Positions 3,907-49,737 of a DNA stretch of 64,000 bases are shown here, in pieces. Each line of letters opens with the position of its first letter. Positions within the stretch are counted from its first letter, which is position 1. The DNA lies in the NCBI GenBank assembly GCA_964555185.1, contig CAZKRD010000001.1, positions 303,272-367,271 on the forward strand. The letters run 5' to 3'. Made by a program: the position numbers and the translations under genes. The stretch comes from an uncultured Candidatus Saccharibacteria bacterium (GTDB lineage: Bacteria; Patescibacteriota; JAQUNI01). The notes beneath the pieces are model-generated. The model saw only the letters and a list, made by a program, of their open reading frames with translations. It ran no database searches and had not been told where the DNA came from.

Positions 3907-5349
3907 ATGTTTCGTATTTTACCTAAAACACTGTTGATTACTCTTGGCCTTGGTTTTATCTTGGCGATTCTAGCCAACATTTTCACTTGGCAGTTTTTGC
4001 TTTTGCCGCTTATGCTTATTTTAGTTTTGTGTTTTTTGGTTTTAAGTTGGTTGCGCTTGGATTATGCTCTTTATTTTTTTATTTTTGAGCTTGTCTTGGG
4101 CGGCGCTGGCGGGAGATGGCTTTCTTTAGGAAATTTTTTGTCAATCCGGATTGTTTTTTTCGCAATTTTGATTTTAGTCTGGGTTTATAAGATTTGCCGC
4201 AAGCAATTGAGCCTAAAACCGATCTTTGAAAGCAAGTTCAGCAAGTTCTTGATCATCCTCGCTTTATTCTTCCCTATCCTCTGGGGGACCCTGGGCTGGA
4301 TTTACGGGTGGCCGGCAAGGTATATTATCGGAGACGGGAATGGGTTTCTGTTCTATATTTTGTTTTTTCTTTTGATTACGGTTTTGCCGAAAGCAGAAAA
4401 GAGCAGAAAACTTGTTAAGGTCTATCTGGTTTCTATTGTTCTGATGAGTGTAATTTCAACCGCTCTTTATTTTTTGGCCGCGACAGAGATCATCAATATT
4501 TGGTTTTTAAAGCAACTGTTTCTAGGGCGGATGTTTTACGGCGGCAAGATTGGGATTATGCCGGACGGCGCTTATCGCCTATTTTTGGGCAACGGCATAT
4601 TTATTCAAAGCGGCCTTTTGATTTTAACCGCTTTACTTTTAAGCGGCTATCGATTAAGAAAGCGCGGACGGAACATTATTTTGGCCTCTATCCTTTTTGT
4701 TCATTTGGCGATTATTGCCAGCTATACTCGCGGCTTTTGGGTCGCGGTGCTTGGCGCGCTTTTATTTCTTACTCTTTGGCTTTCCTGGAAACAGAGATTA
4801 AAACTCTTAGCTGGAATTGTTGTTTTGTTTATCATCTCGGAAATTGTCTTCCAGGGTTTGTTCGGCCTTTCCTTTTTTAACTTTTTCTTTGGCCGGCTGG
4901 CCACAACCGTGAGCGTGGAGAAGGATCCAGTTTCTCTGGGTCAGCGCGTGTCCCAGATCCGGATTTTAGGCGGCGCGATTCTTCGCCGCCCTTTTTGGGG
5001 CACGGGTTTTGGCACTTATTTTCCGCTCTATCGCACCGAAGGGCTAGTAGCCGATCCTTATTCTTTTGAATTGGGTTATCTGGATATGCTGGTTAAATTT
5101 GGGATTGTTGGCTTTGTTTTCTGGGGCTTGGTGATGATCAGAATATTTTTTAAGGGAATAAAAATACTTTTGTTCAAATTTGATTTAGACAGACGAGATA
5201 GAGCAATAATGTTTGGCTTCCTATCTGGCTTAGTCGCGCTTTTGATTGTCGGCGGCACCTCGCCTTTCTTGATGTCATCCTTTGGCATTGCCCATATCGT
5301 ATTAACAATTTATTTAGTTGAACAATATGCTTCCAAGAGTGACGATTAA
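3907..5349 (+). CDS. O-antigen ligase/polymerase-like polytopic membrane protein (Wzy_C-like)
   Basis: 480 aa with more than 10 predicted TM helices. The YTRGFWVAVLGALLF segment and long periplasmic loop fit the O-antigen ligase family. Confidence 0.55.
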   Translation: MFRILPKTLLITLGLGFILAILANIFTWQFLLLPLMLILVLCFLVLSWLRLDYALYFFIFELVLGGAGGRWLSLGNFLSIRIVFFAILILVWVYKICRKQLSLKPIFESKFSKFLIILALFFPILWGTLGWIYGWPARYIIGDGNGFLFYILFFLLITVLPKAEKSRKLVKVYLVSIVLMSVISTALYFLAATEIINIWFLKQLFLGRMFYGGKIGIMPDGAYRLFLGNGIFIQSGLLILTALLLSGYRLRKRGRNIILASILFVHLAIIASYTRGFWVAVLGALLFLTLWLSWKQRLKLLAGIVVLFIISEIVFQGLFGLSFFNFFFGRLATTVSVEKDPVSLGQRVSQIRILGGAILRRPFWGTGFGTYFPLYRTEGLVADPYSFELGYLDMLVKFGIVGFVFWGLVMIRIFFKGIKILLFKFDLDRRDRAIMFGFLSGLVALLIVGGTSPFLMSSFGIAHIVLTIYLVEQYASKSDD

Positions 5350-6325
5350 TCTCCTTGGCTGGAACAGTAAAAACTATTTGAAACAAGCGATAGAATCTAT
5401 TTTAAATCAAACCTATCCTAAGATAGAGACGGTTTTTATTGATAATGGATCAAAAGATGGTTCGATTGATTTTGTGAAAAAGAATTTTCCAGAAGTGAAG
5501 ATTATTGATAACAGGGAAAATTTGGGTTATGCGCAAGGTCACAATATTGGTATTTCTAAAGCCAAGGGCAAATATGTGATTTGCGCGAATCCAGACATTA
5601 TTTTAGAAGATGATTTTGTTTCCCGGGCAGTTGAGGTTTTGGAGCAAGGTCCGCGGATTGGCGCGCTTTCGGGCAAGCTTTTGCAGATGAGAGAATATGG
5701 TATCAAGACCAATATTATTGATTCTACTGGTTTTAAGATTGTCAGGTCACGCCGCGTGATTGATCGAGGGTCAGGCGAAGAGGATCTTGGTCAATATCAA
5801 AGAAAGGAGCGGGTTTTTGGCGTTTCCGGCGCTTTGTCTGTATTCTCTAAAAAAGCCCTAGAGGATGTTAAGATCTTCAATGAATATTTTGATCCGGATT
5901 TTGAAAATTACAAAGAAGATATTGATTTATCTTGGCGCTTAAATCTCTATGGCTGGAAATGTGTTTACTCACCCAAAGCGATTGCTTACCACGAGCGGGG
6001 AACGGCTTTGGGCGCGAAAGCAAAAGGCAGTGACTTCTTGCGTGAAAAAAAGAAGCATTCTTTCCGGGCTAAATATTTTTCTTTTAAAAATCAGAGTTTA
6101 ATGCTTGCCAAGAATGATTTTTTAAGATATTATTTATTAGATTTGCCTTTTATTTTATTCTATGAGTTAAAGCGCTGGGCTTACGTGCTTTTGCGCGAGC
6201 CCAGGCTTGTTGGTTCTTTTCTAAAACTATTGAGTCAAATCCCGCGCGCTCTCAAAAAAAGGAGAGTGATTATGCGCGGGAAGAGGATCAAGCCAAGCAT
6301 GATCAGAGAATTTTTTAGGCAATAG
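5327..6325 (+). CDS. Glycosyltransferase family 2
   Basis: N-terminal GT2 fold: VTINLLGWNSKNYLKQAIESILNQTYPKIETVFIDNGSKDGS, with a DxD-like region. The ORF-track start at 5318 is TTG, so the first ATG at 5327 is used. It overlaps the upstream gene by 23 nt. Confidence 0.75.
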   Translation: MLPRVTINLLGWNSKNYLKQAIESILNQTYPKIETVFIDNGSKDGSIDFVKKNFPEVKIIDNRENLGYAQGHNIGISKAKGKYVICANPDIILEDDFVSRAVEVLEQGPRIGALSGKLLQMREYGIKTNIIDSTGFKIVRSRRVIDRGSGEEDLGQYQRKERVFGVSGALSVFSKKALEDVKIFNEYFDPDFENYKEDIDLSWRLNLYGWKCVYSPKAIAYHERGTALGAKAKGSDFLREKKKHSFRAKYFSFKNQSLMLAKNDFLRYYLLDLPFILFYELKRWAYVLLREPRLVGSFLKLLSQIPRALKKRRVIMRGKRIKPSMIREFFRQ

Positions 6326-38433: not shown

Positions 38434-38505
38434 CGGGGATTGGCCTAATGGTAAGGCGCACGATTCGGGTTCGTGAGACTCCGGGTTCAAATCCCGGATC
38501 CCCGA
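38434..38505 (+). tRNA. tRNA-Pro (anticodon CGG); CCA not encoded
   Basis: Hand-folded. Acceptor stem CGGGGAT/ATCCCCG (7 bp). D arm gcct-aatggta-aggc. Anticodon stem cacga/tcgtg with loop ttCGGgt (U33, G37). Variable loop agact. T arm ccggg-ttcaaat-cccgg. Discriminator A. Confidence 0.8.
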
Positions 38506-38515
38506 CAAAGGTGAT

Positions 38516-38588
38516 GATCAAGTCTTGCTTTTTGGTATTTTAAGAAAAACTAAAACATCAAAATATAAGATTTGATCTCATTTATCCT
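38516..38588 (+). repeat. Island repeat family A, copy 1 (immediately 3' of tRNA-Pro)
   Basis: gatcaagtcttgctttttggtattttaagaaaaactaaaacatcaaaatataagatttgatctcatttatcc. Related copies start at 41545, 45031 and 51906, with a partial copy at 46001. Confidence 0.6.
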
Positions 38589-38637: not shown

Positions 38638-39324
38638 ATGCCACCATCTGGAAAACACAAAGCCGAAGGCCACAGAAAGCGACTCAGAGAAAGGTTTTTA
38701 CAGGGCGGATTTGATGGTTTTCTTGATTATGAAATAGTAGAGTTGCTTTTAACTTTGGGTACTCCTAGAAAAGACTGTAAACAAATGGCAAAAGAGGCGA
38801 TAAAAAAGTTTGGAGGATTGCGGGCCGTGCTTGATGCTCAGTCTGAAGAATTGCAGCAGATTAAAGGCATCGGCCCTTTTAATGTTTTTGGTATCAAGCT
38901 TTTTCAGGCGGTATCCGAACGTTACGCCAAAGAACAGATACCGAAAAAAATTACACTTAATACGTCAGAAGCAGTAGCTAGTTTTTTACAAAAATCTATT
39001 GGCCGAGAAAAGAAAGAGCACTTTGTTATGTTATCTTTAGACGCGCATAATAATTTGATCAAGATTAGTAATATATCCACTGGTTCGTTGACCGCGAGTA
39101 TTGTCCATCCACGGGAAGTTTTTAAGGAAGCAATTAAAGCTTCTTCCGCGCAAATTATAGTTGCCCATAATCACCCATCAGGAGATACTGAACCTTCTCC
39201 GGAGGATGTCGCGCTTACTAGGCGACTTGAAGAAGCGGCCAAAATATTTGGCATCGGACTTCTTGATCATCTTATTATTACCAAAGATAAATTTTCTAGC
39301 TTAAAAGAACAAAATTTAATGTAA
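38638..39324 (+). CDS. RadC-like JAB/MPN-domain protein
   Basis: 228 aa. The HhH-like N-terminus and C-terminal JAMM-like motif IIVAHNHPSGDTEPSPEDVALTRRL are characteristic of the RadC/UPF0758 family. Confidence 0.7.
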   Translation: MPPSGKHKAEGHRKRLRERFLQGGFDGFLDYEIVELLLTLGTPRKDCKQMAKEAIKKFGGLRAVLDAQSEELQQIKGIGPFNVFGIKLFQAVSERYAKEQIPKKITLNTSEAVASFLQKSIGREKKEHFVMLSLDAHNNLIKISNISTGSLTASIVHPREVFKEAIKASSAQIIVAHNHPSGDTEPSPEDVALTRRLEEAAKIFGIGLLDHLIITKDKFSSLKEQNLM

Positions 39325-39328
39325 ATTT

Positions 39329-39676
39329 ATGTCCGATATAAAAAATCTTACAGAAAAAATTAATAAATTTCGGGATGAGCGAGATTGGAAGCAATTCCAT
39401 AATCCTAAAGATGTTGCACTCTCCCTTGCTTTAGAGGCGGCAGAGGTTATTGAACATTTTCAATGGAAGAATAATCAAGAAGTAGCCAAGTATATTAAGA
39501 GCAATAAAGATGATATAGGAGAAGAGCTAGCAGACGTATTGTATTGGGTTTTACTTATGTCTCACGATCTTGAAATAGATATAAAGGAGGCGCTCGAAAA
39601 AAAGATTGCAAAAAATGAAAAAAAGTATCCCATAGACAAATCAAAGGGCAAGCACAATAAATACAACAAACTTTAA
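39329..39676 (+). CDS. MazG-like nucleotide pyrophosphohydrolase
   Basis: 115 aa. EAAEVIEHFQWK...EELADVLYWVLLMSHDLEIDIKEALEKKIAKNEKKY fits the all-alpha MazG/NTP-PPase fold with the EExxD/E motif. The start is 4 nt after the RadC stop. Confidence 0.7.
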   Translation: MSDIKNLTEKINKFRDERDWKQFHNPKDVALSLALEAAEVIEHFQWKNNQEVAKYIKSNKDDIGEELADVLYWVLLMSHDLEIDIKEALEKKIAKNEKKYPIDKSKGKHNKYNKL

Positions 39677-39679
39677 ATT

Positions 39680-41539
39680 ATGATCCTGTATGAAAATACA
39701 ATAGAGCATTTTAACGAAGATGTAATGCAAAATTGCGTTGCGGATCGTGCGGCTGAAAAATACCGAGCATATTATAATAGGGATCCTGGTAATTCCGAGT
39801 ATCGGTCTTGGAGAAACTCACTTGCCATTCTAAATAATAGTTTTATCTATGCCGGATTAAAAAATAACCATATAATTATAGAATATGAACTTCCTTATTC
39901 ATCACGCAGAATTGATGTTTTGCTTTTTGGAAATGATCCTGATGGAGAAGAAAATATTGTCATGATGGAACTCAAGCAATGGTCGAATGAAAACGTTGAA
40001 GACTCTGCATCAGAAGGTAATGTAATTGTTGATTACGGGAAATTCAAAAAAGAACAAGTGCACCCTGCGTTGCAAGTGCAGGGATATCATTTTGGTTTAA
40101 AAGATTTTCTTGGAATTTTTGAACAAAAAAACGCTCCAGAGCTAAGTTCATGTGCATATGCACATAATTATTCAAAAGAAGATAGCACTGTTCTTTTTTT
40201 ACCTAAATTTTCTAGTACAATCAAGACATTTCCTTTATTTGCGAAGGAAGATGCTGTTGAATTGGGGCGGTATCTTAAAGATCGACTTCAAGGTGGCGGT
40301 GGGAAAATAATCTTTGAGCGTTTTGCAAGAAGCGCAATTAAGCCATCTAAAAGACTTCTTGATCATACGTCAGAGATGATAAATGAACAGCAAATTTTTA
40401 ATTTAATTGATGAGCAAATTACTGCCTATAATGCGATAATGCACAAAGCCAAACAGCTTGCGAAAACAAAGCAGAAAGCTGTAGTCATAGTAAAAGGTGG
40501 TCCAGGTACGGGAAAATCTGTGATAGCATTAGAAGTTATGGGAGAACTTTTACGACAAGGGAAAAGGGTTATGCATGCCACAGGATCATCCGCGTTTACA
40601 AATACATTAAGGAAGATAGTGGGTATGCGAGCAAGAAATCTCTTTAAATTTTTTAATAGCTTTATTGCAACGGAGCCAGATTCTTTTGATGTGCTTATTT
40701 GTGATGAAGCCCATCGTATAAGAGAATCGAGCATGAGTAGATATACTCCAAGGGCTCAAAGAACAAATTTGCCTCAGATAGATGAATTGCTAAGAGTAGC
40801 AAAATTAAATATTTTCTTTTTAGATGAGCATCAAATCGTACGGCCAAGTGAAATTGGCGGCATTGCGATGCTTAAGGAGGCCGTTAAACGTTTTGGTATT
40901 AATGATAAAAATGTAGCTGAATTTGAATTAAAAACACAATTTCGTTGTTCTGGATCAGATGCTTATTTACAATGGCTTGATCATGTTTTAAGGATTCGTG
41001 ATACGGAAATGAGAGAGTTTGATGCAAAAATGGAATTTCGTATTTTCGATAACCCTTCAGATATGATGTCTGAAATTCGAAAGAGGAACAAGGAAACATC
41101 AAACTCAGCTCGCATAGCAGCGGGGTTTTGTTGGCCTTGGAGCAAACCAAACCCGGAAGGTTCATTAGTAAAAGATGTAAAAATTGGAAATTTTGCAATG
41201 CCATGGGAGAAGAAAGATCAATTTTGGAAATGGGCAACAGATGATTCAGGCATGGAACAGGTTGGTACTATATATACGGCTCAGGGATTTGAATTTGATT
41301 ATATTGCTGTAATTTTCGGTAACGATTTAGTTTTTGATCCGGTTGAAAATAAATGGCAGGCAGTGCCGGAGAATTCTCATGATACACAAGTAAAACGCAA
41401 TAACCCAAATCTCACGAATCATTTAAAAAACGTTTATCGCGTGCTTCTTTCTCGGGCCCATAAGGGCGTGTATGTTTATTTTATGGATAAAGATACAGAA
41501 AAATATTTTAAGAGTTATTTACCGGAAATAAAATCATGA
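39680..41539 (+). CDS. DUF2075-type nuclease-helicase (N-terminal PD-(D/E)xK nuclease plus P-loop SF1-like ATPase)
   Basis: 619 aa. N-terminal PD-(D/E)xK-like motif IEYELPYSSRRIDVLLFG...IVMMELKQWS; Walker A KGGPGTGKSVIALEV; DEAH-like ICDEAHRI. The start is 3 nt after the MazG stop, so the three genes look like one operon. Confidence 0.65.
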   Translation: MILYENTIEHFNEDVMQNCVADRAAEKYRAYYNRDPGNSEYRSWRNSLAILNNSFIYAGLKNNHIIIEYELPYSSRRIDVLLFGNDPDGEENIVMMELKQWSNENVEDSASEGNVIVDYGKFKKEQVHPALQVQGYHFGLKDFLGIFEQKNAPELSSCAYAHNYSKEDSTVLFLPKFSSTIKTFPLFAKEDAVELGRYLKDRLQGGGGKIIFERFARSAIKPSKRLLDHTSEMINEQQIFNLIDEQITAYNAIMHKAKQLAKTKQKAVVIVKGGPGTGKSVIALEVMGELLRQGKRVMHATGSSAFTNTLRKIVGMRARNLFKFFNSFIATEPDSFDVLICDEAHRIRESSMSRYTPRAQRTNLPQIDELLRVAKLNIFFLDEHQIVRPSEIGGIAMLKEAVKRFGINDKNVAEFELKTQFRCSGSDAYLQWLDHVLRIRDTEMREFDAKMEFRIFDNPSDMMSEIRKRNKETSNSARIAAGFCWPWSKPNPEGSLVKDVKIGNFAMPWEKKDQFWKWATDDSGMEQVGTIYTAQGFEFDYIAVIFGNDLVFDPVENKWQAVPENSHDTQVKRNNPNLTNHLKNVYRVLLSRAHKGVYVYFMDKDTEKYFKSYLPEIKS

Positions 41540-41544
41540 AAGAG

Positions 41545-41632
41545 AATTGATGGTCAAATTTTACTTTCTGACATTTTAAGAAAGATTAAAACATCAAAAT
41601 ACAAAATTTAAGCCTATTTATCTGGCCCCATT
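41545..41632 (+). repeat. Island repeat family A, copy 2
   Basis: aattgatggtcaaatttt...cattttaagaaagattaaaacatcaaaatacaaaatttaagcctatttatc. It shares the gattgatggtcaa prefix with copy 4 and starts 6 nt after the DUF2075 stop. Confidence 0.55.
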
Positions 41633-41927: not shown

Positions 41928-41987
41928 AAAAATGGGGTTAGGTCTTGAATAGTGAATTGTTAAAATCAGAAATGTCTCCATTTTTTT
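41928..41987 (+). repeat. MITE-like element family B, copy 1 (forward, 3' truncated)
   Basis: aaaaatggggttaggtcttgaatagtgaattgttaaaatcagaaatgtctccattttttt. Inverted termini: AAAAATGGGG / CTCCATTTTT. Confidence 0.6.
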
Positions 41988-41999
41988 AAAAATTTCGTT

Positions 42000-42377
42000 A
42001 TGATACAAATTGATACAATTTATAATCGTTATGGAGAACCGAGATTGCGATTACGCAGCAATGGTCGTTTGGTTGATTTTTCTGGACGAAATATCGGATT
42101 TTTAAGTGGAGATAATCTTTATAATGATGAAGGTCGCCATGTTGGTTGGTATGAAGGAGGTATAATGAGAGATCATGGGGGTTTTTGTACGGGCTTCGGG
42201 GAAAATGTGACTGACCAACTTCATCCCCTGCTTCCTGTGCGACAATTGAAGCCTGTTCCAGCTTTACCCCGATTCGAGCCGTTAAGACCCCCAAAGCGTT
42301 TATCCCCATTAAAGCCTTACAAATCTTTTAGATGGTCAAACTTCGACCCGATAGATTTGTTTTTAATGTATGAATAA
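42000..42377 (+). CDS. Hypothetical protein (internal GR.IGFLSGDNLYNDEGRHVGWYEGG repeat-like segment)
   Basis: 125 aa, no recognisable family. It overlaps the next ORF by 8 nt. Confidence 0.35.
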   Translation: MIQIDTIYNRYGEPRLRLRSNGRLVDFSGRNIGFLSGDNLYNDEGRHVGWYEGGIMRDHGGFCTGFGENVTDQLHPLLPVRQLKPVPALPRFEPLRPPKRLSPLKPYKSFRWSNFDPIDLFLMYE

Positions 42378-42801
42378 TATAAGCAAAAAAGGTGAGGGTA
42401 ATAGAAACCAAATCAGCTCAAAGAGTGCCAAGCCCGAACTATCTTTAGGTTATACACAAAGAGATTTAAAAAACCCTGGTGTTGCAAAGGGAATATTGGC
42501 AGAAAATCAAAGGCTCCAAGGAGAGGCAAATCAACTGAAGAAGTCATTAAGGTTAACACAGGACAGTTTTGAGAAGTTAAGGCAAAAATATCATACCAGA
42601 GATAAAGAAAATGCAGTAATGAAAGAGAAGTACTCACTTCTTTCGAGGTTTGAAATTATAAAGTCACTTTCTTTAATCGGCGTTGGTTCGGCGATTTCAT
42701 TTTTAATAGATAAAAAATATTTAACAGCGGCGGCGACTGGTATTATATCATTCATTCTATTGCTAGTTGTAACACGTAAAGATACTAAGGTAAAAAGATA
42801 A
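42370..42801 (+). CDS. Hypothetical coiled-coil protein with C-terminal TM helix
   Basis: 143 aa; coiled-coil segment then a hydrophobic tail LIGVGSAISFLI...IISFILLLVV. Confidence 0.35.
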   Translation: MNNISKKGEGNRNQISSKSAKPELSLGYTQRDLKNPGVAKGILAENQRLQGEANQLKKSLRLTQDSFEKLRQKYHTRDKENAVMKEKYSLLSRFEIIKSLSLIGVGSAISFLIDKKYLTAAATGIISFILLLVVTRKDTKVKR

Positions 42802-42821: not shown

Positions 42822-42878
42822 GAAATGGGATCAGGTCTTGAATAGTGAATTGTTAAAATCAGAAACGTCCCCGTTTTT
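42822..42878 (+). repeat. MITE-like element family B, copy 2 (forward)
   Basis: ggaaatgggatcaggtcttgaatagtgaattgttaaaatcagaaacgtccccgttttt. Confidence 0.6.
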
Positions 42879-42916: not shown

Positions 42917-43390
42917 ATGAAAAAATCAACTATTGATTTATGTGTTTGCATGATACTTTTTAACAAAAAATTTGAATTTTTGCTTGTTAAAAAGTTTCAT
43001 GAAACTGAAAAGATAGGAGGTCTTTGGGTTCTTCCGGGCGGAGGCGGCGGTTTTGCCGATGCCAGAAGTTTTTCAGCTTTGGCAAAGCAAGAGGTGGAGT
43101 ATGATTTGAATGAAAATTATAATAAAAATAAAAAGAAAGGTCAATGGATTAACTTTGAGGTTGAGGAGGGCGCTATTAAAATTTTCAAGACTCAACCTAG
43201 CGAAAAAAAAATTATAATTTATACTTACTGCAACAATTACGAAGGGACTCCCACTCCGAATAATAAGGATATAATAGACTTTCGTTGGTTTCCTATTAAG
43301 AAGATTCGGGAGTTTGGCATGGTTGGGAAAATCGCTTACGGAAATCATTTAGTGATTTATGATTTTTATAGAAAATTTATAGAAATTTAA
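42917..43390 (+). CDS. NUDIX-fold-like protein with degenerate Nudix box (possibly inactive)
   Basis: 157 aa. GGLWVLPGGGGGFADARSFSALAKQEVEYDL resembles the Nudix box GX5EX7REUXEEXGU, but the catalytic E and R are replaced. Confidence 0.35.
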   Translation: MKKSTIDLCVCMILFNKKFEFLLVKKFHETEKIGGLWVLPGGGGGFADARSFSALAKQEVEYDLNENYNKNKKKGQWINFEVEEGAIKIFKTQPSEKKIIIYTYCNNYEGTPTPNNKDIIDFRWFPIKKIREFGMVGKIAYGNHLVIYDFYRKFIEI

Positions 43391-43401
43391 GATGAGAAAT
43401 C

Positions 43402-43436
43402 AAATGGGGACGTTTCTGATTTATTTGGTACAGGTC
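43402..43436 (-). repeat. MITE-like element family B, copy 3 (reverse orientation, partial)
   Basis: aaatggggacgtttctgatttatttggtacaggtc. Confidence 0.4.
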
Positions 43437-43482
43437 GGAAGATCAGAATCAACTAAGATGAAATGAATCAAAAAATTAATCT

Positions 43483-44247
43483 ATGACCAAGCAACCGGCA
43501 CTGGTGGGGATTGTGCCGAGAAAAAATCTCTGGGATGTGATTTGCGAGAAAAGATGGTATCACATCCCGGTGAAGTCGGCTCCCGACAATGTTTCTCTCG
43601 CGGAATTTATCGCCTTTTATTTTCCTAAAATATTCGGCGAAGAGGAAAGATACAAGGTGAATCATTATGCCCAGGTGCGGGCAGTGGATATTGTTAAGAG
43701 AGTCAAGCTTTTCCCAGGGGAGCCAAAACACAAAGGGGCGCATGAAGATTACTTTCAATTTCATCTTGGGGAGATTAAGAGATTGCCGCATCCCATCCCC
43801 AGTAAGAGATGGAGAAGAATTGTTCATATTCCCACCAGTCGTCAAAAATTATTCAGCGCGGAAGAGATTAATGATCTTTACGACACCAGCCCCTTGGAAG
43901 AAAAAGTGTACCGGGAAATGAAGAGACGGCGCATAGACGCCGAAAGACAGGTGTTTGTCCAAGTCGCAGGCCGGGTGTACTGCCTAGACTTTGGAATCTT
44001 TTGTCGCAATGGCGACATAGATGTTGAATGTGATGGTGAGAAATACCATATTTTACCTGATGCCTTAACCAGGGACAGAGAGCGCAACAATCAATTAACC
44101 AGCTTTGGCTGGCATGTTTTGAGGTTTTCGGGAAAAGAAATCAACTGGACTCTGGCAAATTGCTTCAAAGTTATTGAGAAAACGATTAGTAATCTGGGTG
44201 GACTGAGGCAAAAGCTTGATAAGTCGGTTAGTATGTTGTTAAGTTAA
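43483..44247 (+). CDS. Protein with C-terminal DUF559 (Vsr/PD-(D/E)xK-like endonuclease) domain
   Basis: The C-terminus YCLDFGIFCRNGDIDVECDGEKYHILPDALTRDRERNNQLTSFGWHVLRFSGKEI matches the DUF559 pattern D...E.DG..H...D..R...L...GW.VLRF. The N-terminal ~150 aa are unknown. Confidence 0.55.
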   Translation: MTKQPALVGIVPRKNLWDVICEKRWYHIPVKSAPDNVSLAEFIAFYFPKIFGEEERYKVNHYAQVRAVDIVKRVKLFPGEPKHKGAHEDYFQFHLGEIKRLPHPIPSKRWRRIVHIPTSRQKLFSAEEINDLYDTSPLEEKVYREMKRRRIDAERQVFVQVAGRVYCLDFGIFCRNGDIDVECDGEKYHILPDALTRDRERNNQLTSFGWHVLRFSGKEINWTLANCFKVIEKTISNLGGLRQKLDKSVSMLLS

Positions 44248-44283: not shown

Positions 44284-44364
44284 GGGGCAGGTTTTGTATT
44301 TTGGAAAAAATGGAGACGTTTCTGATTTATTTTTGCTAAATTCACTATTGTATGACCTGACCCC
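44284..44364 (-). repeat. MITE-like element family B, copy 4 (reverse orientation, full length ~81 bp, TIR GGGGYCAGGT/GACCTGACCCC)
   Basis: gggggcaggttttgtattttggaaaaaatggagacgtttctgatttatttttgctaaattcactattgtatgacctgacccc. Confidence 0.65.
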
Positions 44365-45003: not shown

Positions 45004-45031
45004 AAAAAACAGAGTCGACCCCATTTTGCAC
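45004..45031 (+). repeat. Repeat family C, copy 3
   Basis: aaaaaacagagtcgaccccattttgcac, 35 nt after the GNAT stop. Confidence 0.55.
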
Positions 45032-45094
45032 TTGTTTTGCGGCATTTTAAGAAAACTGAAAACATCAAAATACAAAATTTGATCCCATTTACAT
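45031..45094 (+). repeat. Island repeat family A, copy 3 (fused to a family C motif)
   Basis: cttgttttgcggcattttaagaaaactgaaaacatcaaaatacaaaatttgatcccatttaca. Confidence 0.55.
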
Positions 45095-45779: not shown

Positions 45780-45861
45780 GGGGTCAGGTTTTGGGAAAAA
45801 CGGAAAAATGGAGACGTTTCTGATTTATTTTTGCTAAATTCACTATTCAAGACCTGACCCC
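45780..45861 (-). repeat. MITE-like element family B, copy 5 (reverse orientation, full length ~82 bp)
   Basis: ggggtcaggttttgggaaaaacggaaaaatggagacgtttctgatttatttttgctaaattcactattcaagacctgacccc. Roughly 90% identical to copy 4. Confidence 0.65.
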
Positions 45862-46000: not shown

Positions 46001-46030
46001 GGATCAAGTCTTGCTTTTTCGAATTTTTAG
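46001..46030 (+). repeat. Island repeat family A, partial copy
   Basis: ggatcaagtcttgctttttcgaatttttag, upstream of purD. Confidence 0.45.
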
Positions 46031-46129
46031 ATCGGATTGACAAAGCCACTGCATGGGATGATAATATAGATGAAATGTACATACACAAACAATTGGCCTA
46101 AATAACCGAAATGTTAGAGAGGAGGCAAA

Positions 46130-47401
46130 ATGAGGATTCTAGTGATTGGAGGGGGCGGAAGGGAACACACCTTGGTTTGGAAAATGGCCCAGAGTCCATT
46201 AGTTGATAAGATTTATTGCATTTCGGGCAATGCGGGAATCGCCGCATTGGCAGAGTGTGAGAAAATAGATGTAGATGGTGCGCTGGAGCCCATAGCAGAT
46301 TTTGCGCTGGATAACAGGATAGACCTGACGGTTGTTGGCCCCGAAGATCCGCTTGCAAACGGGATTGTTGACCTCTTTGCCGCTAGTAGGCTGAGAGCTT
46401 TCGGCCCGGACCAGCTAGCAACACAGATCGAGGCAAGTAAAATATTCTCAAAGGAGTTGATGTGGAAGTATGGCATTCCAACCGCCAACGCCGAGATATT
46501 TGACAACCACGAGGAGGCCACCGCATACATTCGTGATGCAGGTGTACCTATAGTGGTGAAGGCAGATGGTTCAGCTAAGGGGAAAGGCGTTATCGTTTGC
46601 CGTGATGAATTGCAGCAGGCTCTGGATGCTGTTAACACGATTATGGTGGAGAAGGCGTTTGGGAATGCTGGCAACAGGATTCTTGTAGAAGAATGTCTGG
46701 AAGGCGAGGAAGCGTCATTCATCGTTTTTACCGACGGTGAGAATATCTTACCCATGTCCTCTTCGCAGGATCACAAGCCCATATATGACGGCGATCGCGG
46801 GCTGAATACCGGAGGAATGGGAGCTTATTCGCCAGCGCCGGTAGTTACGCCAGAAGTATACGACCTTATCATGGAAACCATAATGCTGCCGACCGTAAAA
46901 GGCATGGCTGCTGAAGGGTATCCATACAAAGGTGTGTTGTATGCCGGCTTGATGATAGCCGATGGCAAACCAAAGGTTATAGAATTCAACGCACGGTTTG
47001 GCGATCCTGAAAGCCAGGCAGTACTACCAAGATTGCAAAGTGATATTGTGCCGGTAATGGAGGCCTGTATCGACGGTACACTGGACCAGGCGCAACTGGA
47101 ATGGTCGGACGAGGCGGCCGCATGTGTTGTAATGGCCTCTGGTGGGTACCCTGTAAAATACAAGAAAGGCAAAGTGATAACTGGCCTGGACGTGGCTGGT
47201 GCTATGGAAAACGTAATGGTTTTTCATGCTGGTACCGCGCGACAGGGGGGCAAGATCGTCACTAACGGCGGCAGGGTCCTTGGTGTGACAGCATTGGGTA
47301 AGGATATCGAAGAGGCGGTTATCACTGCTTACGATGCCGTAGGCAGGATATCCTTTGAGGGCGCATACTTCCGAAACGATATTGCCTATCGTGCCCTCTA
47401 A
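46130..47401 (+). CDS. purD: Phosphoribosylamine--glycine ligase (GAR synthetase)
   Basis: 423 aa. N-terminus MRILVIGGGGREHTLVWKMAQS and a central ATP-grasp fold, collinear with PurD over the full length. Strong GGAGG RBS. GC content is visibly higher than the flanking DNA, and long spurious antisense ORFs appear. Confidence 0.85.
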   Translation: MRILVIGGGGREHTLVWKMAQSPLVDKIYCISGNAGIAALAECEKIDVDGALEPIADFALDNRIDLTVVGPEDPLANGIVDLFAASRLRAFGPDQLATQIEASKIFSKELMWKYGIPTANAEIFDNHEEATAYIRDAGVPIVVKADGSAKGKGVIVCRDELQQALDAVNTIMVEKAFGNAGNRILVEECLEGEEASFIVFTDGENILPMSSSQDHKPIYDGDRGLNTGGMGAYSPAPVVTPEVYDLIMETIMLPTVKGMAAEGYPYKGVLYAGLMIADGKPKVIEFNARFGDPESQAVLPRLQSDIVPVMEACIDGTLDQAQLEWSDEAAACVVMASGGYPVKYKKGKVITGLDVAGAMENVMVFHAGTARQGGKIVTNGGRVLGVTALGKDIEEAVITAYDAVGRISFEGAYFRNDIAYRAL

Positions 47402-47468: not shown

Positions 47469-47520
47469 TTCATTTTTTAAGAAGGTGAAGGGCGGATGGA
47501 TCGCTCTTTGGGTGATTTTT

Positions 47521-47529
47521 TGCTATAAT
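47521..47529 (+). promoter_or_regulatory. Extended -10 element TGcTATAAT upstream of recQ
   Basis: A perfect TATAAT with an upstream TG, 31 nt before the ATG at 47560. Confidence 0.35.
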
Positions 47530-47559
47530 CAAAGAATCTCAATCTTTCTTAAAATAAAA

Positions 47560-49737
47560 ATGAAAAAATTACTTAAAGTTCACTTTGGCTATGATCAATT
47601 CCGGCCCCTGCAGGAAGAAATCATTAGTAATGTTCTGGCCCTGAAAGACACTTTTGTCCTGATGCCCACTGGAGGCGGAAAATCTCTCTGCTACCAGCTT
47701 CCTGCAATGAAATTTTCCGGTTTGACTCTGGTGGTTTCCCCGCTTATCTCCCTGATGAAAGATCAGGTGGATTCTTTGAAAGCCAACGGCATTGAGGCGG
47801 AATTTTTGAACTCTTCGCTTCTTCCCCGGGACGCTATGGATATCCGGCAAAAAGTCCAAGCCGGCAAAACTAAGATACTGTATGTCGCGCCGGAGCGATT
47901 GGCTCTTGATTTTTTCCGTAGATTTTTGCATTCCCTCAAGTTAAGCCTTATTGCCATTGATGAAGCCCATTGTATCTCGGAATGGGGACATGATTTCCGC
48001 CCTGAATACCGTAACCTTAAATTTTTCAAAAGAGAGTTTCTCAAGGTTCCTGTTATCGCCCTGACCGCTACGGCTACGCCGAAGGTCCGGGCAGATATTA
48101 TTAAACAACTTTCCTTAAGAAAAGCGAAGCAGTTTGTTTCCAGTTTTGACCGGGAAAATTTGACCTTCTCGGTTCTGCGGAAGAAGAATGCTTTTGAAAA
48201 AGTTATGGCTCTTTTAAAGAGGCACAAAGGCGGATCGGCCATTATCTATTGTTTTTCCCGGCGCGAGACCGAAGAAATTGCCGCCAACCTGAAGATCGAA
48301 GGCATTAAAGCCCTGCCTTATCACGCCGGATTGCCCCGGGAGATCCGCAAGCGCAACCAGGAACAATTCATCAAAGACGAGGCGCGGGTCATTGCCGCGA
48401 CTATTGCCTTTGGCATGGGCATTGACAAGCCTGATGTCCGTCTGATCGTCCATTACACTTTTCCGAAAACTTTGGAAGGATATTACCAGGAAATAGGGCG
48501 CGCAGGCCGCGACGGCCTGCCGGCTGAATGCGCCCTTCTTTATTCGTACGGAGATATCCGCAAGCATGAATTCTTTTTGGGGCAGATGGAAAATACGCAG
48601 GAACAGGAGAATAGCCGCCAAAAACTTAACCAGGTTGTGGAATACTGCCAGGGAAGAGGATGCCGCCGGAAATATCTGCTCCAATATTTCGGAGAGGAGT
48701 ATCCAAGGAAAAACTGCAAGGGTTGCGACAGCTGTCTTCGGCCTAAAATAGAATATGAGGCCACCGAGATTGCCCGGAAGATCCTTTCTTGCATTCTGCG
48801 CACTGAATCCCGGTTCGGTAAAAAATATGTCATTGATCTGCTTCGAGGCAAGGCCACCGCGCGGATAACCGGCAACGGCCACCAGACTCTTTCAGTCTTT
48901 GGGATTGTCCGGGATTTGACCATTGAAGAAATGAGGGAGGTGATCAATGACCTGATTTCTCTCGGCTATCTATCTTCTTCTGAAGGAATGTATCCCACTC
49001 TTTCGGTCACAGCTCACGGCATTCAATTTCTTAAGGAAAAACAGAGCCTTACCCTTTCCCGGATAACGCAGGATCTCCTGGATTATGAAGAGGAAGAATC
49101 AGCCGGAGTGGAAGCGCAGTATGATATTCGGCTCTTTGAGAACTTGCGCGTCCTGCGAAAGCAGATCGCGGATGAGCGGGGAGTGCCGCCTTTTGTTATT
49201 TTCGGCGATGCTGCTCTATATGCAATGGCTCGGTATTTTCCGGTCGATCCAGATAATTTTTTAAGAATTCAGGGAGTGGGAGAAAGAAAGCTGGAAAGTT
49301 TTGGCAATTCTTTTATGGATGTTATTTTAAAATATGTTAAGGAGAACAAGCTTAAGCCGGAAATGGTTCCTGACCGGAGCAGAATTAAACGCAACCGGGC
49401 GCGCAGAAAAGTTAAGGCAGGTTCAACCTATCGGGAAACAAAGGAGCTGATTGATCAAAAGACCTCCCTGCGGGAGGTCGCCAGGGCGAGGGGATTAAAG
49501 CCGGGAACGATCATCAGCCATCTGGAAAAACTGGTTATAGCCCAGGCAAAGATTGATCTTGATTATCTCAAACCGTCCGGTAAAGAATGTCGGGAAATCC
49601 AATCCGCTTTTCAAAAATGCGGATACAAATGGCTTAAGCCTGCTTATGATTTTTTGGATGAGAAATATACCTACGACCAGATCCGCCTGGTCAGAGTGAT
49701 AAGTAGCATCCGGCAATCCCGGAGAGAGGCAGGGTAG
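47560..49737 (+). CDS. recQ: ATP-dependent DNA helicase RecQ (helicase, RQC zinc-binding, winged helix and HRDC-like C-terminus)
   Basis: FGYDQFRPLQEEII, P-loop MPTGGGKSLCYQLPA, DEAH (IDEAHCISEWGHDFRPEY), and a four-cysteine RQC (CRRKYLLQYF...CKGCDSC). The track start at 47485 is GTG, so the ATG at 47560 is used. An extended -10 TGcTATAAT sits at 47521-47529. Confidence 0.85.
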   Translation: MKKLLKVHFGYDQFRPLQEEIISNVLALKDTFVLMPTGGGKSLCYQLPAMKFSGLTLVVSPLISLMKDQVDSLKANGIEAEFLNSSLLPRDAMDIRQKVQAGKTKILYVAPERLALDFFRRFLHSLKLSLIAIDEAHCISEWGHDFRPEYRNLKFFKREFLKVPVIALTATATPKVRADIIKQLSLRKAKQFVSSFDRENLTFSVLRKKNAFEKVMALLKRHKGGSAIIYCFSRRETEEIAANLKIEGIKALPYHAGLPREIRKRNQEQFIKDEARVIAATIAFGMGIDKPDVRLIVHYTFPKTLEGYYQEIGRAGRDGLPAECALLYSYGDIRKHEFFLGQMENTQEQENSRQKLNQVVEYCQGRGCRRKYLLQYFGEEYPRKNCKGCDSCLRPKIEYEATEIARKILSCILRTESRFGKKYVIDLLRGKATARITGNGHQTLSVFGIVRDLTIEEMREVINDLISLGYLSSSEGMYPTLSVTAHGIQFLKEKQSLTLSRITQDLLDYEEEESAGVEAQYDIRLFENLRVLRKQIADERGVPPFVIFGDAALYAMARYFPVDPDNFLRIQGVGERKLESFGNSFMDVILKYVKENKLKPEMVPDRSRIKRNRARRKVKAGSTYRETKELIDQKTSLREVARARGLKPGTIISHLEKLVIAQAKIDLDYLKPSGKECREIQSAFQKCGYKWLKPAYDFLDEKYTYDQIRLVRVISSIRQSRREAG

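Follow-up and report, generated by a model that had tools for sequence, protein, structure and literature searches.

A conserved MazG and DUF2075 nuclease-helicase gene pair, joined by RadC in one clade, as a candidate defence module in a Candidatus Saccharibacteria bacterium

What is the function of three genes that lie almost end to end beside a tRNA gene in an uncultured Candidatus Saccharibacteria bacterium, the first encoding a RadC-like protein, the second a MazG-like pyrophosphohydrolase and the third a large nuclease-helicase? The window studied here is a stretch of 64,000 nucleotides (nt) of contig CAZKRD010000001.1 (assembly GCA_964555185.1, positions 303,272 to 367,271), and all coordinates refer to it unless a locus is named. 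In its list of open reading frames (ORFs), the genes for RadC (38638-39324, +, 228 amino acids, aa) and the MazG-like protein (39329-39676, +, 115 aa) are separated by ATTT (4 nt), and the latter is separated from the gene for the 619-aa DUF2075 nuclease-helicase (39680-41539, +), the presumed effector, by ATT (3 nt). The three genes are a single tightly packed operon, as a preliminary description made from the letters alone had claimed. The motifs quoted in that description (HNHPSGDTEPSPED, EELADVLYWVL, IDVLLFG...MMELKQW, GGPGTGKS and ICDEAHRI) are all found in the translations, and its three domain assignments agree with Pfam and NCBIfam matches. We suggest that the operon is probably a horizontally mobile nucleic-acid-targeting unit whose targets are most likely phages or other mobile elements, and that the nuclease-helicase is the probable effector of such an anti-phage or anti-mobile-element system.

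The conserved unit within the operon is the pair formed by MazG and DUF2075, with RadC as a clade-specific third gene. A locus scan that took one genome per species yielded 80 loci with DUF2075 proteins 50-82% identical to that of the window, 76 of them with enough upstream sequence. A MazG-like gene lay on the same strand no more than 900 nt upstream of DUF2075 in 67 of these 76 loci (88%); in 59 of the 67 it was directly adjacent, and RadC separated the two genes in six of the remaining eight. The spacing is tight, with 41 of 42 measurable MazG-to-DUF2075 gaps falling within -7 to +9 nt and 36 within -4 to +3, and the percent identities of the two proteins correlate across loci (Spearman 0.63, p = 5e-9). 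Pairing is kept even at 31-35% identity, on plasmids of Priestia aryabhattai and Halalkalicoccus jeotgali and on the chromosome of Paenibacillus phoenicis; it is absent at a Hymenobacter plasmid and at two methanogen loci. The Priestia pair is encoded by K8Z47_RS26330 and K8Z47_RS26325 of plasmid NZ_CP083270, and the Paenibacillus phoenicis pair belongs to locus L174. Since RadC is confined to the closest clade and five DPANN loci, it is MazG and DUF2075 that we regard as the core. The expected co-occurrence of homologues across genomes was therefore seen for the pair, whereas RadC is not the constant member that the proposed three-gene unit implied.

RadC is nevertheless a recurrent accessory of the pair, acquired in at least two arrangements. 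Where DUF2075 is 67% identical or more, 17 of 20 loci contain RadC (63-81% identical), in one of two gene orders; of 37 loci whose DUF2075 is 60-67% identical, only one does. Three unrelated contigs hold all three genes, one of them ordered MazG-RadC-DUF2075 and not RadC-MazG-DUF2075. At the five DPANN loci (DUF2075 57-59% identical), a divergent, bona fide full-length RadC is convergent with DUF2075 and abuts its stop codon.

Could the arrangement in the window be fortuitous, the packing of three unrelated genes into a compact genome? Nearly all genes of the window are on the plus strand and closely spaced, and promoter and terminator scans gave nothing above chance, as such packing would allow. 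The recurrence of MazG upstream in 67 of 76 loci from bacteria and archaea, that of RadC in 17 of 20 close loci and in two orders, and the correlated identities of the partners nevertheless rule out mere adjacency, whose probability we consider negligible. The module is almost certainly a real functional unit.

What, then, do its proteins look like? The 619-aa protein matches Pfam PF09848 (DUF2075, now SLFN-g3_helicase) over residues 266-603 (E = 1.5e-85), which corresponds to a superfamily 1 (SF1) helicase domain of the DUF2075 or SLFN group-3 type at 40475..41488 (+), with a Walker A box, GGPGTGKS, at nt 40496-40519 (+) and a DEAH box at nt 40703-40714 (+). Residues ~1-240 (39680..40399, +) appear to form a NERD-like PD-(D/E)xK nuclease domain with the motif E68, R77, D79 ... 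E97-x-K99 (nt 39914-39976). The 240 N-terminal residues of the window copy gave no Pfam match of their own; among 42 homologous N-termini, 19 match Pfam NERD (best 2e-5) and a few match PDDEXK_9, PDDEXK_13 or SduA_C. E68, R77, D79, E97 and K99 are invariant across N-terminal domains that are 19-100% identical, and the Walker A box and DEAHR are likewise kept. This N-terminal domain was found in 1431 cluster representatives (50% identity), mostly proteins of ~620 aa. A first AlphaFold2 model, from an alignment of 20 sequences all at least 73% identical, was discarded (predicted local distance difference test, pLDDT, 48); the retained model, from 68 sequences including a clade ~33% identical, reached a pLDDT of 85.4 (~90 in the nuclease region). 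In it, the successive strands 64-70, 77-85 and 91-99 bear E68, D79 and E97/K99, and further strands and a helix (129-143) follow. Sequence and profile searches of the PDB with the 619-aa protein gave nothing useful; Foldseek matches of the model fell on its C-terminal two-thirds, with SLFN11 as the best (2.3e-13), followed by RecD2, Dna2, Dda, Upf1 and nsp13. Conserved residues, NERD matches, model and structural matches all favour the nuclease-plus-helicase reading put forward earlier, and we describe the protein as a NERD-like PD-(D/E)xK nuclease joined to an SF1 helicase, both activities being predicted.

The MazG-like protein scores well above the gathering cut-off of Pfam PF12643 (3.2e-18; 66.2 bits against a cut-off of 27) and matches an archaeal pyrophosphatase (PDB 4qgp, 8.7e-21) and mammalian DCTPP1/RS21-C6 (1.2e-16). 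It has an intact EXXE...EXXD metal site, with putative metal-binding residues E36 and E39 (nt 39434-39445) and E66 and D69 (nt 39524-39535); R18, W20, H24, K27, E36, E39, E66, D69, K111 and Y112 are invariant in 30 MazG-like sequences down to 36% identity. With DCTPP1/RS21-C6 and 4qgp it has in common the fold family, the metal site and the motifs ERDW-QFH-P and FQW. Its sequence thus identifies it as a DCTPP1-like all-alpha nucleoside triphosphate pyrophosphohydrolase. DCTPP1/RS21-C6 and 4qgp are stand-alone house-cleaning enzymes, whereas here the gene is joined in an operon with a nuclease-helicase. In human cells, DCTPP1 controls the level of 5-methyl-deoxycytidine triphosphate (5-methyl-dCTP; PMC4491611).

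RadC matches Pfam RadC (PF04002, 1.4e-43) and, with its helix-hairpin-helix (HhH) N-domain, UPF0758_N (PF20582, 1.9e-11), and it aligns with PDB 2qlc at 1.4e-24. Its JAMM motif (nt 39166-39207; E160, H177-x-H179-x7-S187-x2-D190) is intact and conserved in 25 homologues, and RadC thus combines an equivalog-level score with the HhH N-domain and the E...HxH...S..D motif that mark the family. The catalytic residues are therefore conserved in all three proteins. Chromosomal RadC proteins of the YicR/YsxA family likewise have the full HhH and JAB domains and an intact JAMM motif. RadC-DinG fusions, in which a RadC domain and a DNA helicase are parts of one protein (PMC11981726), are independent evidence for a link between RadC and helicases. 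Unlike chromosomal RadC and the fusions, RadC is here a separate gene that is co-transferred with MazG and DUF2075.

How has the module spread? More than 5000 sequences are homologous to the 619-aa protein, and the best 120 are all ~618 aa long and 73-90% identical; the organisms named among those 120 are Pacebacteria, Jorgensenbacteria, Levybacteria and one Bathyarchaeia archaeon. The 80 loci span Gammaproteobacteria, Patescibacteria, Acidobacteriota, Omnitrophota, Nitrospirota, Planctomycetes and Spirochaetia, together with Bathyarchaeia and many DPANN archaea, whose copies are 50-64% identical. A patchy distribution in which DUF2075 stays 73-82% identical across Patescibacteria, Gammaproteobacteria, Spirochaetia and Bathyarchaeia, that is, across bacterial phyla and archaea, indicates horizontal transfer, including transfer between domains of life. 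Phages do not appear to be the source. No relatives of the module were found in the 2.9 million viral contigs of IMG/VR, GenBank phages gave four weak or unannotated records, and we rejected a phage origin on this near-absence from viral collections. Plasmid homologues are distant, with most on non-mobilizable replicons and below 45% identity. As a side observation, the Omnitrophota contig CAVYLG010000005.1 carries two DUF2075 copies ~17 kb apart (L040 and L071), one with an adjacent MazG and the other with MazG 2.7 kb upstream, and one Acidobacteriota metagenome-assembled genome has two MazG-less DUF2075 copies beside RepB/ParB-like genes (L033 and L085).

The position of the operon in the window raises the question of whether it is itself part of a mobile element. 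The tRNA-Pro gene (CGG; 38434-38506, +; ARAGORN, and at 67.3 bits the sole match of an Rfam scan) marks the upstream edge of an island and ends 131 nt before the start of RadC. Between 39 and 46 kb the G+C content falls from about 0.42-0.45 to 0.35-0.37; the remainder of the window is housekeeping sequence, with ScpA, SecA, SecDF, enolase, FtsW, purD and ribosomal protein S11. A 75-nt direct repeat is present directly upstream of the operon (copy 1, 38512..38586, +), after it (copy 2, 41548..41622, +, 80% identical to copy 1) and before a VTT-domain gene (copy 3, 45019-45093). Copy 2 starts 9 nt past the DUF2075 stop codon, so that the operon is bracketed by repeats. A 30-nt sub-repeat lies at both ends of the island, at 38516-38545 and, just before purD, at 46002-46031 (27 of 30 positions identical). 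By pattern searches of the 64-kb window, the repeat family is confined to the island. The repeats start 6 nt beyond the tRNA gene and contain none of its sequence, and ORF and domain scans of the island (38.5-46 kb) found no integrase, relaxase or transposase. Low G+C and flanking repeats are thus present, without the integrase and the repeats derived from a tRNA 3' end that define a tRNA-integrated element. A related organism (locus L093) is informative here. There too the module follows AlaRS and tRNA-Pro, in the same position, and of the repeats only the copy next to the tRNA gene is present; copy 2 is missing. We had considered the 75-nt repeats as attachment sites of the module and reject this, as L093 has the module without the downstream copy and no integrase is present. 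The shared locus, with divergence like that of housekeeping genes, points to an island long resident in this lineage and not to a recent insertion.

The same evidence bears on the idea that the module is cargo that benefits a mobile element and not the host, either as anti-restriction or establishment machinery of an integrative or conjugative element or as an addiction pair in which MazG would temper a toxic nuclease-helicase. JAB genes of the RadC type are often met in prophages and in the leading regions of conjugative elements. Distant homologues do occur on plasmids, RepB/ParB-like genes are neighbours at Acidobacteriota loci, direct repeats bracket the operon next to a tRNA gene, and the overlap of a small first gene with a large second one resembles the layout of toxin-antitoxin pairs; moreover AbiO, which has a similar architecture, is reported to be toxic at high copy number (PMC13064643). 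However, the island lacks integrase, relaxase and transposase genes, the missing second repeat in L093 means that the repeats are not the ends of the module, the plasmid matches are mostly non-mobilizable and below 45% identity, and the 2.9 million viral contigs hold no relatives. We therefore think it very improbable that the module is cargo of this kind.

If the module acts against foreign DNA, what company does it keep? The 267 first and second neighbours of the module form few recurrent clusters, and the nearest genes vary from locus to locus. The conserved housekeeping context that would speak against a defence candidate was accordingly not seen. A ~232-aa HNH protein lies directly downstream of DUF2075 in 11 loci (for example L010:7863-8561, L012:3213-3908, L013:7857-8558, L016:5126-5824, L017:7847-8548 and L088:7857-8558), and four members of its cluster also match Pfam SAD_SRA; it is absent from the window and could be an optional fourth component that reads modified bases. 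Other recurrent neighbours are a Cas4-like PDDEXK_1 nuclease and a 658-aa DUF2075 paralogue that is the genuine PDC-S41 of PADLOC (4.4e-291) and adjoins the module in 3-5 loci (L032:3251-5227, L035:8400-10394, L049:2520-4496). Together with tandem DUF2075 genes on the Hymenobacter plasmid (L089:1904-3760 and 4001-5890), these paralogues suggest that such nuclease-helicases tend to cluster. Further neighbours include GIY-YIG proteins, type II restriction enzymes, Mrr, BglII, AbiEii, OLD-like ATPases and several PADLOC candidate systems. In Paenibacillus, GmrSD_N lies ~1 kb from the pair; in Priestia, DUF3578 is directly upstream of MazG; and DUF2075 has been reported beside the modification-dependent enzyme McaZI (PMC6765204).

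MazG relatives that lack DUF2075 tell a similar story, several of them being tightly coupled to other partners. The N-terminus of one cluster of coupled proteins matches the N-terminal domain of Thermococcus McrB in a profile search (PDB 6p0f, 3.2e-8); these McrB-N-like proteins overlap MazG at L096:1817-2809, L098:401-1372, L119:4339-5457, L139:577-1617 and L164:4345-5754, and the scanned member with a match, that of L096, carries an HNH domain at its C-terminus as well (Pfam, 1.5e-9). Other relatives are coupled to a Vsr mismatch endonuclease, and some partners are, by the look of their sequence, putative tRNA-guanine transglycosylases. Pfam gave no confirmation of an EVE/PUA reader in the MazG-coupled proteins, and the weak N-terminal match of one pair of them to the EVE protein PH1033 (E = 0.043) is treated as unconfirmed. 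The pairing of MazG with modification-dependent nucleases may be a broader, undescribed theme. Because both partners are recurrently associated with such nucleases and the enzyme resembles DCTPP1, it is conceivable, and we put it forward tentatively, that the MazG-like enzyme acts on non-canonical deoxynucleoside triphosphates (dNTPs).

These neighbourhoods invite a sharper version of our best explanation, namely type IV-like modification-dependent restriction. The nuclease-helicase would attack modified DNA, and MazG would be its immunity partner, destroying modified dNTPs so that host DNA stays unmarked. The HNH family with its SAD_SRA members, GmrSD_N and DUF3578 beside the pair, McaZI beside DUF2075, the coupling of MazG relatives to McrB-N-like proteins (one with HNH) and to Vsr, and the likeness to DCTPP1 are all in keeping with this idea. 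However, domain scans found no modified-base reader (SRA, EVE/PUA/YTH, McrB-N or DUF3427) in RadC, MazG or the 619-aa protein; readers were seen only in neighbours at some loci. Most loci have no modification-dependent neighbour, and the association could reflect mere co-residence in defence islands. We consider this specific form unlikely.

How might the module work, then, as a more general defence against phages or mobile elements? We infer a defence function, and with it the substrates and the division of labour; the architecture of the 619-aa protein equals that of the experimentally validated Nhi, Nhi-like and AbiO enzymes. On the model of Nhi and AbiO, the helicase would load on foreign or replicating DNA and translocate with ATP, and the N-terminal nuclease would degrade the DNA. 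The MazG-like enzyme might hydrolyse non-canonical dNTPs, probably 5-substituted dCTPs, which could starve phages that build modified DNA; it might also keep modified nucleotides released by DNA breakdown out of the DNA of the host. For RadC our suggestion is the weakest: in this clade it might, as a DNA-bound metallo-hydrolase with HhH and JAB domains, assist or regulate the helicase.

Several observations weigh against a dedicated defence system, and they are best read together with its main rival, a housekeeping operon for DNA repair and nucleotide-pool sanitation. MazG would then clean up damaged dNTPs, the nuclease-helicase would process damaged or stalled DNA in the manner of Dna2 and RecD2, both of which are among its structural matches, and RadC would act at DNA ends. 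RadC is by score an ordinary member of its family (227.8 bits against NCBIfam equivalog NF000642, cut-off 180), and DCTPP1-type enzymes are sanitisers of the nucleotide pool (PMC4491611). In L093 the module proteins are 90-93% identical to those of the window and the housekeeping proteins 81-94%, which fits a resident housekeeping role equally well. Some neighbours are plain housekeeping genes (SecY, AlaRS, SufBD and proteasome subunits), and the near-absence of relatives from viral collections would suit such an operon. MazG is absent from nine of the 76 loci. In the reciprocal scan, only 31 of 75 metagenomic MazG-like relatives (44-76% identical) have this DUF2075 downstream; MazG therefore appears to be shared by several nucleases, or sometimes to stand alone, and is not a dedicated subunit. 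None of the three proteins matches a PADLOC v2 family over its full length, RadC and MazG being without any match, and the modified-nucleotide idea, for which the module has no reader domain of its own, draws on neighbourhood association and the likeness to DCTPP1. Against the housekeeping view stand the patchy distribution, in which identity stays at 73-82% between bacterial phyla and archaea and which indicates horizontal transfer, the location in a low-GC stretch, flanks that differ at almost every locus and often contain restriction, Abi or other defence genes, the two copies on one Omnitrophota contig, and the reported toxicity of AbiO, of the same architecture, at high copy number (PMC13064643). 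On balance we judge a housekeeping operon rather improbable. The preliminary description's candidate status for defence holds, as homologues co-occur, catalytic residues are kept and flanks vary; the defence function itself is our reading of these facts.

The rest of the island may hold a conflict system of its own. Downstream of the operon lie genes for a 4-fold beta-flower protein (42000-42377; Pfam Bflower, 4.5e-25), a 143-aa protein with weak SLATT_4 or 2TM-effector similarity (42370-42801, overlapping the Bflower gene by 8 nt), a NUDIX protein (42917-43390) and a 254-aa protein (43483-44247) with a C-terminal DUF559/MTES_1575 endonuclease domain and a ~130-aa N-terminal half to which no domain is assigned. 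L093 lacks the segment from Bflower to DUF559, which may thus be a separate conflict-system cassette. The 254-aa protein matches PADLOC PDC-S37 and Hhe through its nuclease domain only. Another short repeat, AAATCAGAAAYGTCYCCRTTT, forms part of an imperfect ~56-nt hairpin and is present in almost every intergenic gap of the island (41930-41985, 42823-42878, 43400-43443, 44306-44349 and 45804-45847). It occurs in both orientations and nowhere else in the window, with one copy in L093. These hairpin repeats fold no better than shuffled sequence, and they could be similar to miniature inverted-repeat transposable elements or repetitive extragenic palindromes, or to terminators.

Beyond the island, purD (46130-47401) is followed by recQ (47485-49737), which has the complete RecQ architecture (DEAD, Helicase_C, RecQ_Zn_bind, RQC and HRDC) and stands among housekeeping genes. 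The preliminary description had drawn on the tRNA gene, the DUF559 endonuclease and recQ for a defence-island context. The first two belong to or border the low-GC stretch; recQ lies past purD and outside it, and we do not count it as evidence. RecQ presumably accounts for the PADLOC DpdF matches (down to 4.8e-229), in which case these would reflect the RecQ-like nature of that model and not a Dpd system. In a rough PADLOC baseline of the window's 42 housekeeping proteins, almost all listed matches were to models of helicases or ATPases, DpdF and PsyrT among them, and no more than one protein matched each of these models; the matches probably stem mainly from RecQ, the matching proteins not being named in the output.

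What would the module mean if its most ambitious interpretation were right? That interpretation is a widespread immune system of bacteria and archaea in which DCTPP1-like policing of modified dNTPs is combined with DNA destruction by a Schlafen-type helicase-nuclease, and to which RadC adds a third subunit in one clade. We regard it as doubtful as a whole; if true, it would provide the first defined biological role for RadC, and it would mean that the human guardians DCTPP1 and an SLFN11-type helicase were already partnered in prokaryotic immunity. More modestly, the module suggests the hypothesis that immunity by DNA degradation goes hand in hand with cleaning up or depleting non-canonical dNTPs, and it offers a functional context for RadC, a ubiquitous protein that has gone without an assigned function for decades; we know of no RadC with a known biochemical function. 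Its spread reaches the ultra-small DPANN archaea, in which, to our knowledge, few defence systems have been characterised. Homologous pairs in cultured Paenibacillus and Priestia give experimental access.

Where does the module stand among known systems? In the literature searched, we found no paper that joins MazG with DUF2075, Nhi, Schlafen or defence islands, and the recent reviews and discovery papers searched list no such system; the claim that the three-gene combination is undescribed agrees with this. Bacterial Schlafens are defined by their RNase domain, and their description mentions neither DUF2075 nor MazG (PMC13056530). With the eukaryotic group III Schlafens (SLFN11, SLFN14 and SLFN5) the 619-aa protein has the helicase domain alone in common, and a NERD-like DNA nuclease takes the place of the Schlafen/AlbA_2 tRNA-nuclease domain; neither the protein nor the 42 homologous N-termini gave a Pfam match to the latter. 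The closest PADLOC model is PDC-S41 (PDLC05014, 1.9e-23), a partial match with its best stretch at residues 524-600. PDC-S41 is also a DUF2075 family, of ~650 aa and with a PD-(D/E)xK-like N-terminus, and by sequence the two appear to be distinct sister families.

The nearest functional parallels are single proteins. Nhi of Staphylococcus epidermidis (SERP2475; Bari et al., 10.1101/776245) and Nhi-like (Millman et al., 10.1101/2022.05.11.491447) are anti-phage enzymes in which a PD-(D/E)xK nuclease at the N-terminus precedes a helicase overlapping DUF2075/PF09848, and AbiO of Lactococcus, an abortive-infection protein, combines an SF1B helicase of SLFN_3-like type with a PD-(D/E)xK N-terminus (PMC13064643). 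Nhi and Nhi-like occur in defence contexts and presumably act by degrading foreign DNA, and the family of the 619-aa protein is likewise found near defence genes. The label "Nhi-like" that the module had been given therefore suits the architecture, but not the sequence models, which match the helicase core alone: PADLOC Nhi (PDLC02372) covers residues 242-469 with model positions 183-373 of 470 (E = 1.7e-14), and AbiO (PDLC02350) covers residues 240-468 with positions 177-368 of 468 (E = 1.5e-13). The nuclease domain and the C-terminal part lie outside the Nhi alignment, and the nuclease here is NERD-like. AbiO is a stand-alone gene for which no MazG or RadC partner is described, and Nhi and Nhi-like act singly, whereas in our module MazG is translationally coupled to the nuclease-helicase in 88% of loci and RadC is added in the closest clade. 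One-protein DUF2075 defences are thus known, and the near-constant DCTPP1-like partner points to a multi-component version; the module has the appearance of a multi-gene relative, so far undescribed, of the Nhi and AbiO anti-phage enzymes, which are single proteins.

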